Source: a virus (Duplodnaviria; Caudoviricetes). Taken from it: DNA of 64,000 nucleotides. Below are positions 8,924 to 63,544 of the stretch, piece by piece (the first letter of the stretch is position 1; each line of letters starts with the position of its first letter). The position numbers and the translations under genes are program-made. The stretch covers positions 1-64,000 of IMG/VR virus record IMGVR_UViG_2765235989_000002; one strand, given 5' to 3'. Below the pieces are notes generated by a model. That model made no database searches and was not told the DNA's origin. It worked only from the letters and a program-made list of their open reading frames with translations.

Positions 8924-9727
8924 TCATGCCACGTCGAACACCCGGCGTGGCAGCGGGCCCTCGGCCTTTTGCGCACGTGCCACGCGCAGCGCGGTTTGGT
9001 AGACGGCATCGGCCTCGGTAACGTGCGCAGGCGCGGCTACACGTTCCGCTTCAACGACCGCCTCCGTGAACGCATCTGCTGGCTCGCGGCGCGAGGGATG
9101 AGCGACCGCGGCGTTGAGGCGCGCGCGGGCCGCAGCGACGAGCGGCCCTTCCTCGGGCGCGGTCGGCCGGTGCTCGAGGGCGAGGGCAAGGGTACGGCGG
9201 TAGCCGGCCGAGGCGTTCTCCCGCGTCCGTACGGGCGCGGCCGTCGTGTCCGGCGTTCCGGCAGTGGTGACGGTGGGCGCGGTGGAGCGGGGCTGGCCGG
9301 GGCCGACGGCGAGGACCCGGATCGTGCGGACGGCGGCCCGGCCCAGCTTGTCGTTGATCTGCTTGGCAAGCTGCCCGCCGAGCAGCCGCAGCTGGGTGGC
9401 GTAGGCGTTGGACGAGGGGCGGAGGTCGAGCCGGCCTTGGTCCGGGTCGAAGCCTTCAGCGGCGATGAGTCCGTCGTACTGCGGGCACAGGACGGGCCAC
9501 TGGTGGAGGATGTTGCCGCCGTCGAGGCCGAGTTCCCATCCCTGTTCAGCGTTGATGCGCTCGATGGCGGCGGCGAAGGTGACCGGGTCGCGGCCGCCGG
9601 AACGGTCACGGCGGATCCGAGGAGCCTTCCTCGGCGCAGCTGGCCGGGTGCTGGCGGCGGTCTTGTAGGCGGCGAGGGCCTGGCGCGCGAGGTCGACGCC
9701 TGACGCGGTCGGGGTGTGGTCAGGCAT
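8924..9727 (-). CDS. DUF721/DciA-like protein
   Basis: SGVDLARQAL..RDP..GW..WP.L...SSNAYATQLRLL..L...IN..LG...V..I, typical of actinobacterial DUF721. Confidence 0.75.
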   Translation of the reverse strand: MPDHTPTASGVDLARQALAAYKTAASTRPAAPRKAPRIRRDRSGGRDPVTFAAAIERINAEQGWELGLDGGNILHQWPVLCPQYDGLIAAEGFDPDQGRLDLRPSSNAYATQLRLLGGQLAKQINDKLGRAAVRTIRVLAVGPGQPRSTAPTVTTAGTPDTTAAPVRTRENASAGYRRTLALALEHRPTAPEEGPLVAAARARLNAAVAHPSRREPADAFTEAVVEAERVAAPAHVTEADAVYQTALRVARAQKAEGPLPRRVFDVA

Positions 9728-11189
9728 AGGTGGCGGCCTCCTGCCAGGGCATGCTGATGCGGACGTTGGTGCTGTACCGGGTGAGTGCGCGGTCGACGAG
9801 CTGGTTGGTGTAGAGCCGTCGGGCGTCGGCCTCGCCCATGACGGGGATGGCGTCGAGGATGATCTGAGGGTTGGCCTCGGCGGCGGCCCTCAGGTCCACG
9901 ACGGTCGCCTCGTCGAGGGTGTCGATGTCGACATGCTGGCTGTCGTCGTGGCCGTAGCTGACAGCGGCCTCAAGGTCCTCGGCGGACGGCTGGCGGCTGT
10001 GCGCGAGGGCGTCGCGGACGATCCGCTGGACGGACGCGCGGGCCGGGCCGCCGCCGAGGGTTTCGTATCCGCGGTGGCGGGCCTTCTCCTGGACGCGGGA
10101 CTCCTGCCATGCCAGGACGGCCGTCTTGCGGCGCTGGGGGGTGGTGTACAGCAGGTGGGCGCCCTTGAGGCGGTGGGCGAGCATCCCGGACGGGCGGCGG
10201 ACCTCGGCAGCGGTGAGGGGGGTGGCTTCGGCGACGGCCTGGACCTCGAGCGCGGTCCATCCGGCGTCGGCGACGTCCCGGAGGATCCACGCGAGCCGCT
10301 TCCACGAGCCGCGGGAGAGCCACGGGGCGATGCTCATGACCTCGCGGGCGAGCTGGTAGCGGCGGCCGACGCGGTTCAGCTTCCGCCGACCACCGGCCTG
10401 CGCCTTGGACTTCTTCGGGGTGGGGGACTTGCTCTGCCCGCTTGCGAGCTTGCTCTCAGGGGGGAAGTGAGTAGTACCGGCAGTGTCAACAGCTGAGGTA
10501 CCACCCTGCATTGGGGTGCAACGCGTCCTCGAGGAAACGGTCTGCTTCCGGGGCCGGCGGCGCTTGCGGGTGGCCTTCCGGGCGAGCTTCCCCAGCAGGC
10601 CCTGCTTCTCCGGCGCGGCCCCGACCGGGACACGCGTGTAGGCGGGCATCGTCTCGTCGCGCTGGATCGTGCGGATGCCGTGGGCCTCATCGAACGCGGC
10701 GGGGATGATCCGCTCGAACACGGACGTCTGGTTCGGCTGCCCGGACAGGCGGGTGCCCTTCACTCGGTACACGAGGAGCCCGGTCTCGCGGAGCAGGCCG
10801 AGGTGGTACTGGATGGTCCGCTCCGACACCTTCAGCTTCCGCATGAGGTAGGCGATTCCGGGCCGGCACTCGGTCAGCGCGGAGAGTTCCTGGGCGATGA
10901 CGAGCGTCGTCGGCCCCCACTTCGGGCCGTGCTTCCGGGACGGCACGTACAGGCCGGTCTTGGCGAGTTCGTGGACCCAGTGGACGGCGGTCATCCAGGA
11001 GTGGGCGCAGGTGGCGATCCGTCCGCTCGTGGCGTCCAGCCACTGGTCGGCGGGCGCGACAGGGAAGGCACCGGGGGTCTTCGAGGTGTCCTGTCGCTGG
11101 CACGGGATGCCGCCACGGTTGGGGGAAATACTGGGCGAATCGCCCGTGCGGGCGCGCGGAAGCTGACAAGAAGGGGATGCGTACGGCAC
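9720..11189 (-). CDS. Putative replication initiator (N-terminal HTH)
   Basis: CRPGIAYLMRKLKVSERTIQYHLGLLRETGLL HTH; adjacent to parAB and a DciA-like gene. Confidence 0.65.
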   Translation of the reverse strand: MPYASPSCQLPRARTGDSPSISPNRGGIPCQRQDTSKTPGAFPVAPADQWLDATSGRIATCAHSWMTAVHWVHELAKTGLYVPSRKHGPKWGPTTLVIAQELSALTECRPGIAYLMRKLKVSERTIQYHLGLLRETGLLVYRVKGTRLSGQPNQTSVFERIIPAAFDEAHGIRTIQRDETMPAYTRVPVGAAPEKQGLLGKLARKATRKRRRPRKQTVSSRTRCTPMQGGTSAVDTAGTTHFPPESKLASGQSKSPTPKKSKAQAGGRRKLNRVGRRYQLAREVMSIAPWLSRGSWKRLAWILRDVADAGWTALEVQAVAEATPLTAAEVRRPSGMLAHRLKGAHLLYTTPQRRKTAVLAWQESRVQEKARHRGYETLGGGPARASVQRIVRDALAHSRQPSAEDLEAAVSYGHDDSQHVDIDTLDEATVVDLRAAAEANPQIILDAIPVMGEADARRLYTNQLVDRALTRYSTNVRISMPWQEAATYA

Positions 11190-11271
11190 TATGTACCCGT
11201 CTTCCTAAGCGTTTGTGGGACGACAACGGCCCCGCTTCGGTGGTGCTGCTTCGGTGAGAAGCAAGTAGGTC

Positions 11272-11383
11272 GCTCGAACACTCGGGCCCGGTCGCCAAAC
11301 CGGATCTGAGATTCGAGCCTTAGCTCGGTCGCCAAACCGAGCCGTCGGATACGGCCGCGCACGGTGCGCCAACACCAGCGGCC
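11272..11383. ncRNA. Structured element: three hairpins with identical CGCCAA (+) / UUGGCG (-) loops upstream of rep
   Basis: CCGGT-CGCCAA-ACCGG (extends 11272-11318), GCTCGGT-CGCCAA-ACCGAGC, GGTG-CGCCAA-CACC. Confidence 0.55.
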
Positions 11384-11438
11384 AGCGGTTGAGGAAGTGC
11401 CCCCGCCAAGGGGCCCAGAACCTCCCGCTCGAAGGTCG

Positions 11439-11903
11439 CTACGTCACTCGATCTCCCTTACTGGGTGAGGTCTGTCCCTGCGCCCGTTCGGCGAGGAAGT
11501 CGTTGCGGAATCCTCCGCGCGCCGCAACCCGCAGCATGTCCTGCTGCCAGTCACTCGGGCCACTGTCGCGGTCCAACTCCGTGTTCCACCCGGGCTTGTA
11601 CTCGGGGTGGTGGCGCCACATGCGGGTGAAGTAGCGCATCGTGGAGCACGGGAAGCCGCAAGCCGCGTCGCAGGTGAAGCAGCGAGCCTGGCTGTAGCCG
11701 TCGTTGGTGACGTAGCAGGAGTGCTGTACGACGGCCAGGCGCAGCGACTCAACTCGGGCTACCGCCGCGTCCCGCGCGGAACCCTCGTGGAGGGCTGTGG
11801 CCGCATCCATCTCCTCGCGGAGCCGGGCGTACACGAAGTCCTCCGCCCGGAACTCCCAGCCGAAGTCGGGGTCGTCAGAGCCGAGGTAGACCATGCCGCT
11901 CAT
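11439..11903 (-). CDS. Hypothetical protein (DUF6221-like)
   Basis: FVYARLREE...CFTC...FPCSTMRYF..W..HPEYKPGW. Confidence 0.6.
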   Translation of the reverse strand: MSGMVYLGSDDPDFGWEFRAEDFVYARLREEMDAATALHEGSARDAAVARVESLRLAVVQHSCYVTNDGYSQARCFTCDAACGFPCSTMRYFTRMWRHHPEYKPGWNTELDRDSGPSDWQQDMLRVAARGGFRNDFLAERAQGQTSPSKGDRVT

Positions 11904-12337
11904 CGGTGGCCTCCTGTCCAGCCGTAGCCCTCAGCGAGGATCAAGATCACGGGGCACGCATCGCCGGGGGCGAACTGCATCCACTCGTCCAGGTGGCCAG
12001 TCCCGTCTGCGAGGCAAGAGTGTCCTCGACCGCCGTGCAGTTCCAGCAGCTTTCGGTCGGCGGCGCAGCGGCGCAGGACCGACTCGGGGTCGTTCAGGGC
12101 GATGTGAACGGACTGGTCCTTGGACGGATGGACGTCGTTGCTGACCACGACGATGTCCAGTTCGTCCTCGTAGACGACGTGTGACTCGAGTTCCCATTCA
12201 TCGGCGTAACGGTTGTCCGAACTGGTTCCGCTGCACCAACGTCCTGAACGGCCCTTGAGGGCCCGTTGTGCCGCATTGGAACGGATGGCGATGACAGTGT
12301 TCAGCCAGGCGAGGACGCTCTCGCCCTGGCCGCTCAT
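11900..12337 (-). CDS. DUF6221 family protein
   Basis: HIALNDPESVLRRCAADRKLLELH...CPVILILAEGYG. Confidence 0.7.
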   Translation of the reverse strand: MSGQGESVLAWLNTVIAIRSNAAQRALKGRSGRWCSGTSSDNRYADEWELESHVVYEDELDIVVVSNDVHPSKDQSVHIALNDPESVLRRCAADRKLLELHGGRGHSCLADGTGHLDEWMQFAPGDACPVILILAEGYGWTGGHR

Positions 12338-12754
12338 CGCGTGGGCTGTGTAGTGGTGACAGGACCCCTCGATGGCGGTGCGTTCACGCCAGAGTTGCGG
12401 GTCTGCCTGTGATCCGGGGAACGGCCCCGGGTAGTCTTTGCCATGTCGGCACCTTCGTAGAGGGTTGAGTGTCGACCCGGCCCTGCTCCTCGGTGTGCTA
12501 CCACCTTGGAATCCAGCGGGGCCGGACCTATGTCCAGGGGTGTCGCCGTCAGACCTGTAGCTGAGTGGTCGTCTGGCGCCAGGCTGAGCCTACCAATTCC
12601 CTCCGCCACTGTCCCCACCTTCTCCCATACCGTGTCGATCTAGTCAGATCGTCAGCTCATCATGCTGGTCACTCGACCCGGGCGCCGGGCCACCCGAGTC
12701 CAATAAAGATTCACCACAAATAACCGATGCCTGCGGCCCTGCCCTGCTTCGCCC

Positions 12755-63394: not shown

Positions 63395-63544
63395 GGATCA
63401 GCCTCCTGTATGCGCAGGTGGGACGATTCGCCGGGTCCTTCGGGGCCCCTGAGAGGCCTAGGTGTATGCGCACCTGGGCCTTTCGGCGGTTCTGGGGCTT
63501 CCGCCGTTCCCGACCACTTCAATGTAGACCACTCGCGGCACGAT

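Follow-up and report, generated by a model that had tools for sequence, protein, structure and literature searches.

Four hairpins lie in the non-coding DNA directly in front of the candidate rep gene of a Streptomyces phage-plasmid. They differ in their stems, and all of them present the same six-nucleotide loop, which reads CGCCAA on the + strand and UUGGCG on the rep (-) strand. In homologous plasmids this loop word varies, usually in all hairpins of one array together (42 arrays), and it is independent of the Rep protein that is encoded downstream. The reading that we prefer, tentatively and with a confidence that falls a little short of calling it probable, is that the array is a multivalent sense/antisense kissing-loop RNA system resembling the UUGGCG/CGCCAA systems of enterobacterial plasmids.

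The window, i.e. the whole stretch of 64,000 nt that was analysed, belongs to a pZL12-like phage-plasmid of Streptomyces with a length of 83,134 nt, and all relevant genes are on its minus strand (Table 1). The upstream ORF and rep are separated by a gap of 249 nt. The candidate Rep has 27% identity to pZL12.20c over 342 aa (E 2e-19). Zhong et al. reportedly mapped the repA locus in pZL12 in 2010. A tblastn search of the phage collection with Rep returned only two records of Streptomyces phage ZL12 (pZL12), with 26% identity, and PHROGs contained no family for Rep, the DciA-like protein or the upstream ORF. The annotations of the rep candidate in the relatives L025-L054 are inconsistent, i.e. 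helix-turn-helix protein, transcriptional regulator, hypothetical protein, or "cell wall protein", and the annotated start codons are up to ~130 codons apart.

Table 1. Features of the array and its surroundings, listed from upstream to downstream of rep (window positions; hairpin sequences as read on the + strand)
Feature	Positions	Strand	Description
Two DUF6221-like ORFs	12337-11900 and 11903-11439	-	upstream of the array
5′ cassette boundary block	11435..11480	-	overlaps the 3′ end of the upstream ORF (final ~15 codons and TAG stop)
Hairpin A	11399..11414		stem GCCCC/GGGGC, loop CGCCAA 11404-11409 (+); conserved in relatives
Hairpin B	11353..11383		outer stem GGCCGC/GCGGCC, inner stem GGTG/CACC, loop CGCCAA 11367-11372
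Hairpin C	11323..11342		stem GCTCGGT/ACCGAGC, loop CGCCAA 11330-11335
Hairpin D	11272..11318		inner stem CCGGT/ACCGG, loop CGCCAA 11293-11298, outer stem GCTCGAA/TTCGAGC
Inverted repeat E	11247..11263		TGCTTC-N5-GAAGCA here; mostly GGTTC-N4-6-GAACC in relatives (~20 nt after hairpin D)
3′ cassette boundary	11160..11195		rep GTG 11189-11187 (-), 18 variable bases, then near-invariant TTGTCAGCTT
rep candidate	9720..11189	-	489 aa, GTG start, winged-HTH region; distant pZL12.20c homologue
DciA-like gene	9727-8924	-	downstream of rep
ParA-like gene	8702-7962	-	beyond the DciA-like gene

Reading of the sequence and a stem search placed the four hairpins at 11288-11414, between the upstream operon and the rep start at 11189. 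The loop words start at 11293, 11330, 11367, and 11404, i.e. with a spacing of exactly 37 nt. The original prediction had described an array of three hairpins with the same hexaloop and different stems. These three, i.e. hairpins D, C, and B, are real and have the loop positions listed in Table 1, but the count was too low, as hairpin A is a fourth member. The G-U pairs that had been attributed to the longest stem on the + strand were also seen in the + strand fold.

The hexamer CGCCAA as such is not enriched, with 43 sites on both strands of the window compared to an expectation of 42.1 ± 7.0. Only four of the 43 sites are flanked by a stem of at least three Watson-Crick pairs, and these are the four hairpins, each of which has at least four pairs. 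Stems of at least 4 bp around a 6-nt loop are found at just 0.62% of the window positions. Chance does not account for the array, as flanking stems occur at only these four sites. The fold energy of the whole region is unexceptional (z values of -1.68 for the + strand and -1.22 for the - strand), and thus the signal of the array is the repeated loop together with covariation, not stability. The whole 83,134-nt genome contains no other hairpin with a CGCCAA hexaloop, and the search for a second hairpin with this loop made no trans-encoded partner RNA apparent. An additional hairpin, "Z", over a GGGAGG box was dropped, as its pairing is not preserved in relatives.

Of the 126 plasmid records matched by the rep region, 124 are from Streptomyces; the 331-nt intergenic stretch matches 54. 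The comparative analyses were based on 42 different homologous arrays, which came from contigs of GTDB and IMG/VR and from 30 records of plasmids or phages. Their common layout on the rep strand is a block ending in the upstream stop codon, the GGGAGG box, hairpins A-D, repeat E, a variable GC hairpin, the ribosome site, and the GTG start. A scan of viral contigs for the exact pattern of three CGCCAA words 37 nt apart yielded 13 loci, six of which are homologous arrays. The other seven (L013, L014, L016, L018, L020, L021, and L022) are unrelated to the array and were discarded; two of them, L013 and L022 from giant-virus bins of IMG/VR, are AT-rich 37-nt tandem repeats, each with GTTTTGGCG and a short palindrome.

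For 29 class-I-like sequences, the named structure is paired in 87.0% of the cells, compared to 37.7-51.2% when the partners are slid against each other. Twelve pairs change on both sides, a number that was matched by one of 500 shuffles, which ignore the relatedness of the sequences. Examples are an inner pair of hairpin B and the outer stem of hairpin D, which change from G-C to A-U and from C-G to A-U, respectively, in eight of the 29 sequences each; hairpin C has several alternative complementary stems in relatives. In the other classes, the stem sequences differ and complementarity is kept, which is a stronger argument for selected hairpins than the shuffle test. Covariation had been proposed as a check of the hairpins, and both the two-sided changes and the complementary stems across classes reveal it.

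The comparison of the relatives also revealed the boundaries of the conserved region. On the 5′ side, conservation begins ~45 nt before the upstream stop codon, even behind unrelated ORFs. Unrelated upstream ORFs share their last ~15 codons (...QTSPSKGDQVT, stop), and in pZL12 the block lies outside any annotated gene. As the block is common to unrelated ORFs and stands alone in pZL12, it is part of the non-coding cassette rather than of a protein. On the 3′ side, 18 variable bases separate the start-codon block from TTGTCAGCTT, which occurs in 39 of 40 arrays and uses codons that are rare in Streptomyces (TGT and CTT); conservation ends there. The nucleotide sequence of the first ~30 codons of rep is conserved even between two Rep families with ~27% identity elsewhere. 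The conserved 5′ end of rep, with TTGTCAGCTT and its rare codons, is a signal at the DNA or RNA level within the coding sequence, and it may be an antisense promoter. The shared boundary blocks, the unrelated upstream ORFs, and the divergent Reps together argue for a unit at the nucleotide level of ~340 nt. The array evidently forms the core of this self-contained non-coding cassette, which extends from ~11480 to ~11160 and recombines freely with different rep genes.

Inverted repeat E shows the reverse of the pattern of hairpins A-D, i.e. its arms are conserved and its spacer is variable. This pattern is operator-like and would be typical of a dimeric operator; the variant of the repeat has no obvious match to the Rep family. 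Positions 11234-11256 contain a tandem GCTTCGGTG repeat on the + strand. At the matching place, many relatives have CCCGCTTCGGTGGG on the + strand, which corresponds to a C(UUCG)G tetraloop hairpin; this hairpin includes a G.U pair, the rep-strand counterpart of which would be a mismatch of A and C.

The loop words of the 42 arrays fall into six groups, given here as read on the rep strand. TTGGCG is the most common word and is found in 26 arrays, in four loops in 15 of them, in three loops in eight, and in two loops in three. Four arrays have TTGACG in all four loops, two have TTGCCG three times together with TGCCAC, five have TGCCA-type words, and one has TTGGCA/TTGGCT. The remaining four arrays, including that of pZL12, lack hairpin A and have CGCCAA on the rep strand, i.e. 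the word is flipped to its reverse complement. The TTGACG arrays differ from the nearest TTGGCG arrays at ~9% of the non-loop positions (13-19 of 158), and despite this close similarity they have the same G-to-A change in every loop. By our own arithmetic, three further occurrences of this change at its loop position have a probability of about (1/18)^3. The 37-nt period is confined to the TTGGCG and TTGACG classes, and spacings of 50/44/27 or 49/46/27 are found elsewhere; helical phasing is therefore not a conserved feature.

We compared the loop words with the Reps that are encoded downstream. These belong to at least two divergent families, which have only ~30 N-terminal residues in common. 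Class I arrays occur with both of them (13 with family 1, nine with family 2, and four unclear). Reps that are 97% identical (aa 31-170, including the HTH) are found behind a class III/TGCCA-type array (L032) and a TTGACG array (L053), and Reps that are 91% identical are found behind the flipped array of pZL12 and a TTGGCG array (L047). Conversely, Reps behind arrays of the same class and word can be only 23-26% identical. Upstream ORFs are also unrelated between arrays of one class. A repeat that co-varies with the DNA-binding domain of Rep, as is typical of iterons, was thus not found in the Rep pairs with 97% and with 23-26% identity. The loop word is independent of Rep, and Rep is not its reader. 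That the word does not follow Rep argues against Rep-bound iterons and favours a self-contained, portable cassette for control and incompatibility.

Plasmids that share a strain also differ in their words. Strain NBC_01240 has a TTGGCG plasmid (L044) and a TTGACG plasmid (L048), and strain NBC_01369 likewise has one of each (L054 and L053, respectively), so that the words differ in both of the two strains in which both arrays were read. Two further strains seem to follow this pattern, as judged solely from identical hit statistics. Three of the four TTGACG plasmids reside beside a TTGGCG plasmid, one of the three by this hit-statistics inference. The pattern fits an incompatibility role of the loop word without proving one, and the word need not be the cause of compatibility because the co-resident plasmids differ in Rep as well.

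The cassette brings its specificity with it when it is exchanged between rep genes, and the rest of the genome holds no partner for it; such an element is best explained by cis-encoded sense and antisense RNAs that meet by their loops. The rep leader, transcribed from the - strand, would display up to four UUGGCG loops, and a + strand countertranscript would display the complementary CGCCAA loops. Kissing at any identical loop pair would nucleate a duplex and shut down the expression of rep. It would thus set the copy number, and the loop word would be the incompatibility determinant. Plain antisense pairing does not require identical loops, because a cis-antisense pair is complementary whatever the loop sequence. 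The identity of the loops could be explained by nucleation of any loop with any other, and also if escape from a co-resident relative requires all loops to change. A reverse-complement flip is compatible with kissing, since a complementary pair of sense and antisense loops is retained.

Kissing-loop RNA copy control had been proposed in the original prediction, and it gains from the position before rep, the covariation, the word identical to that of ColIb-P9, the concerted switching, and the different words of co-resident plasmids. Its other parts, i.e. transcription across the array on either strand, the position of an antisense promoter, the kissing mechanism, and the effect on rep, we infer from the sequence. 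A YUNR U-turn may be located in the sense or in the antisense loop, according to the accessible text of PMC4485353. The loops UUGGCG, UUGACG, and UUGGCA fit this motif, UUGCCG and GUGGCA do not, and a part of the TGCCA-type loops does not fit it strictly.

The sequence was also inspected for signals of transcription. The + strand at the rep start contains CTGACA (11163-11168) and CACTAT (11187-11192), separated by 18 nt, i.e. a promoter pattern with a variable spacer. These hexamers have five of six and three of six matches to the consensus, respectively, and were not detected by the sigma-70 scan. They could constitute a + strand antisense promoter, with a weak -10 element in a block that also holds the start codon. 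Scans for sigma-70 consensus promoters and for terminators gave no sites in 10900-11900, and Rfam gave no matches at E values up to 10 (10900-11700, both strands). No RNA-seq run was listed among the runs matching 9700-12400, the sole match being a soil DNA run with 0.09 of the words. Inspection of 39 minus-strand CGCCAA word contexts revealed no start-site pattern for the loop complement; these 39 words are inside coding sequences, typically in GCC-AAG/AAC codons. Many relatives have a variable GC-rich hairpin and a U-rich tract between repeat E and the rep ribosome site, and the terminator scan found no intrinsic terminator between the target hairpins and this ribosome site in the window.

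The main rival to the kissing-loop reading is serious, even though we regard it as unlikely. The loops could be read by a protein, or by a part of Rep other than its variable body, that binds hairpins of RNA or of single-stranded DNA. The reader could be encoded by the plasmid or by the host, the array would be a multivalent platform for it, and its specificity would co-evolve with the loop word. Conceivable roles include translational repression, the recruitment of a helicase or primase, and a partition-like or handcuffing site. One shared reader predicts four identical loops that sit on different stems and change together, and the gene for a DciA-like helicase loader after rep makes single-stranded origin signals conceivable. 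The mismatches may favour folding of one strand. The loop-word hairpins have 15 A.C mismatches on the rep strand, which would be G.U pairs on the + strand, versus four G.T mismatches, and many of all these mismatches share ancestry; for hairpin C, base composition alone predicts a ratio of about 2:1 if only the 5′ arm is free to vary. Standard pairs amount to 93.0% on the rep strand versus 95.6% on the + strand of the 29 class-I-like sequences, and most of this gap is due to a single C.A column, located in the outer stem of hairpin D and conserved in 27 of the 29. Fold energies showed no preference, the + strand being more stable in 23 of 40 cases (mean z values of -1.52 and -1.58). No candidate for the reader was found among the neighbours of the array, where neither the upstream ORFs nor Rep track the loop class, and a host-encoded reader would leave the plasmid-specific loop words unexplained. 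The flip of the loop to its reverse complement on the same strand, as in the pZL12 type, is awkward for a reader of single-stranded loops.

That the array is a classical origin, at which Rep binds the repeats as iterons in double-stranded or cruciform DNA, as has been suggested for other theta plasmids of Streptomyces, we consider quite improbable. The array is indeed directly upstream of rep, but the regular 37-bp spacing seen in the window is missing in the other classes. The flip would be easily accommodated, as TTGGCG and CGCCAA are the same duplex site and the nearly identical Reps of L047 and pZL12 could bind both; however, the lack of correspondence between word and Rep described above weighs against this explanation. 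Selection acts on the complementarity of the arms and not on their sequence, which a dimer on duplex DNA would not need, and stems as short as 4-7 bp, closed by 6-nt loops, form cruciforms poorly. RepA of pWTY27 binds a long inverted repeat of its iteron, for which stem-loop recognition was suggested (accessible text of PMC3583192), and this is in favour of an origin. The cumulative GC skew, which is dominated by gene orientation and uninformative, gave no origin signal here. The least probable explanation is a rep mRNA leader that acts only in cis, i.e. an attenuator, stabiliser, or processing site, in which the loops are alike because a ~37-nt unit was duplicated in tandem. Each unit has a hairpin and the linker word CTTCC, suggesting a tandem-repeat origin, and the GC-rich hairpin with U-rich tract of many relatives would suit this explanation, but past duplication cannot account for a lineage in which all four loops acquired the same base change, the flips are unexplained, and the window has no terminator-like site.

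The kissing-loop reading invites a comparison with characterised plasmids. CopA and RNAI share the UUGGCG loop motif. In the available text of Asano et al. (1998), 5′-rUUGGCG-3′ is the target-loop motif of ColIb-P9. The array resembles ColIb-P9 Inc/repZ, IncB RNAI, and R1 CopA/CopT in having a hairpin before rep whose loop reads UUGGCG on the rep strand and, on the other strand, CGCCAA, and this was found for all four loops. The use of the loop bases as the incompatibility determinant is a further, proposed likeness to ColIb-P9 and R1. In contrast to the one hairpin of those systems, four are present here (three in some relatives), all with the same loop. ColIb-P9 and R1 are enterobacterial, whereas the host here is an actinobacterial phage-plasmid, and the array is exchanged independently of rep. 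They also have an antisense RNA, the counterpart of which is here a candidate deduced from sequence.

Two further hallmarks of the enterobacterial systems were looked for. No conserved coupled leader peptide of the repY/tap type is found among the 42 arrays, and a loop pseudoknot partner, CGCC(AA) near the rep ribosome site, has no conserved place in any class. A 29-codon frame starting from the UUG of loop A was rejected, as it is absent in 11 of the 42 arrays and often out of frame, and its peptide is not conserved. The analogy to ColIb-P9 and R1 drawn in the original prediction is thus borne out by the UUGGCG loop and fails for the leader peptide and the pseudoknot of loop and ribosome site. 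The array may work like these systems, but it is not a member of their family, because both features were searched for and not found.

In ColE1, which has no Rep protein, single loop-base changes in RNA I/RNA II create new compatibility groups. ColE1 and pIP501 resemble the array in having several consecutive stem-loops, the loops of which would kiss their complements; their loops differ from each other, whereas the loops here are identical within a plasmid. For RNAIII of pIP501, two loop pairs must interact at once, as stated in the accessible part of Heidrich and Brantl (2007). pIP501 and pT181 have an attenuator terminator, in contrast to the window, where none is detectable. The accessible text of PMC3583192 describes Streptomyces theta plasmids as rep-plus-iteron loci. 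pWTY27, pFP11, and SCP2 are similar to the plasmid studied here in having a non-coding region with repeats or inverted repeats beside rep. Unlike in their iterons, the repeated word here is located in the loops of variable stems and shows no covariation with Rep. The open-access text that was searched, which did not include the pZL12 paper, yielded no paper on antisense control in Streptomyces theta plasmids.

Hairpin A, the classes of loop words, their independence from Rep, and the different words of co-resident plasmids are new here. A wider proposal, which we offer as possible and with more doubt than confidence, is that a large family of Streptomyces phage-plasmids uses a portable RNA "barcode" for replication control and compatibility, and that this barcode acts independently of the initiator protein. 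It would consist of three or four hairpins with one shared kissing loop and any-to-any nucleation, a new compatibility type would emerge when the word is changed or flipped simultaneously in every loop, and the commonest word would equal the enterobacterial U-turn loop by convergence. If the kissing-loop reading holds, it would add a system of copy control and incompatibility that is separable from Rep, and it would explain how closely related phage-plasmids of 85-100 kb can share one strain. The loop word would be a sequence marker that predicts compatibility at one glance, and vectors for Streptomyces could be equipped with orthogonal control parts. That the enterobacterial hexaloop is used again here would be a clear example of convergence, with the U-turn kissing loop as a physical optimum. 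The array had also been suggested to control a plasmid/lytic switch, and nothing was found that connects it to such a switch.

Outside the rep region, a stem with a TATGCG loop had been predicted in the tra leader, and it is indeed present at about 63455-63480. A second hairpin with a TATGCG loop is located at 63405-63418, and the two are 55 nt apart. Their stems differ, i.e. CCTG/CAGG at 63405-63418 and GGCCTAGGTG/CACCTGGGCC at 63455-63480, and the design is the same as that of the array before rep.
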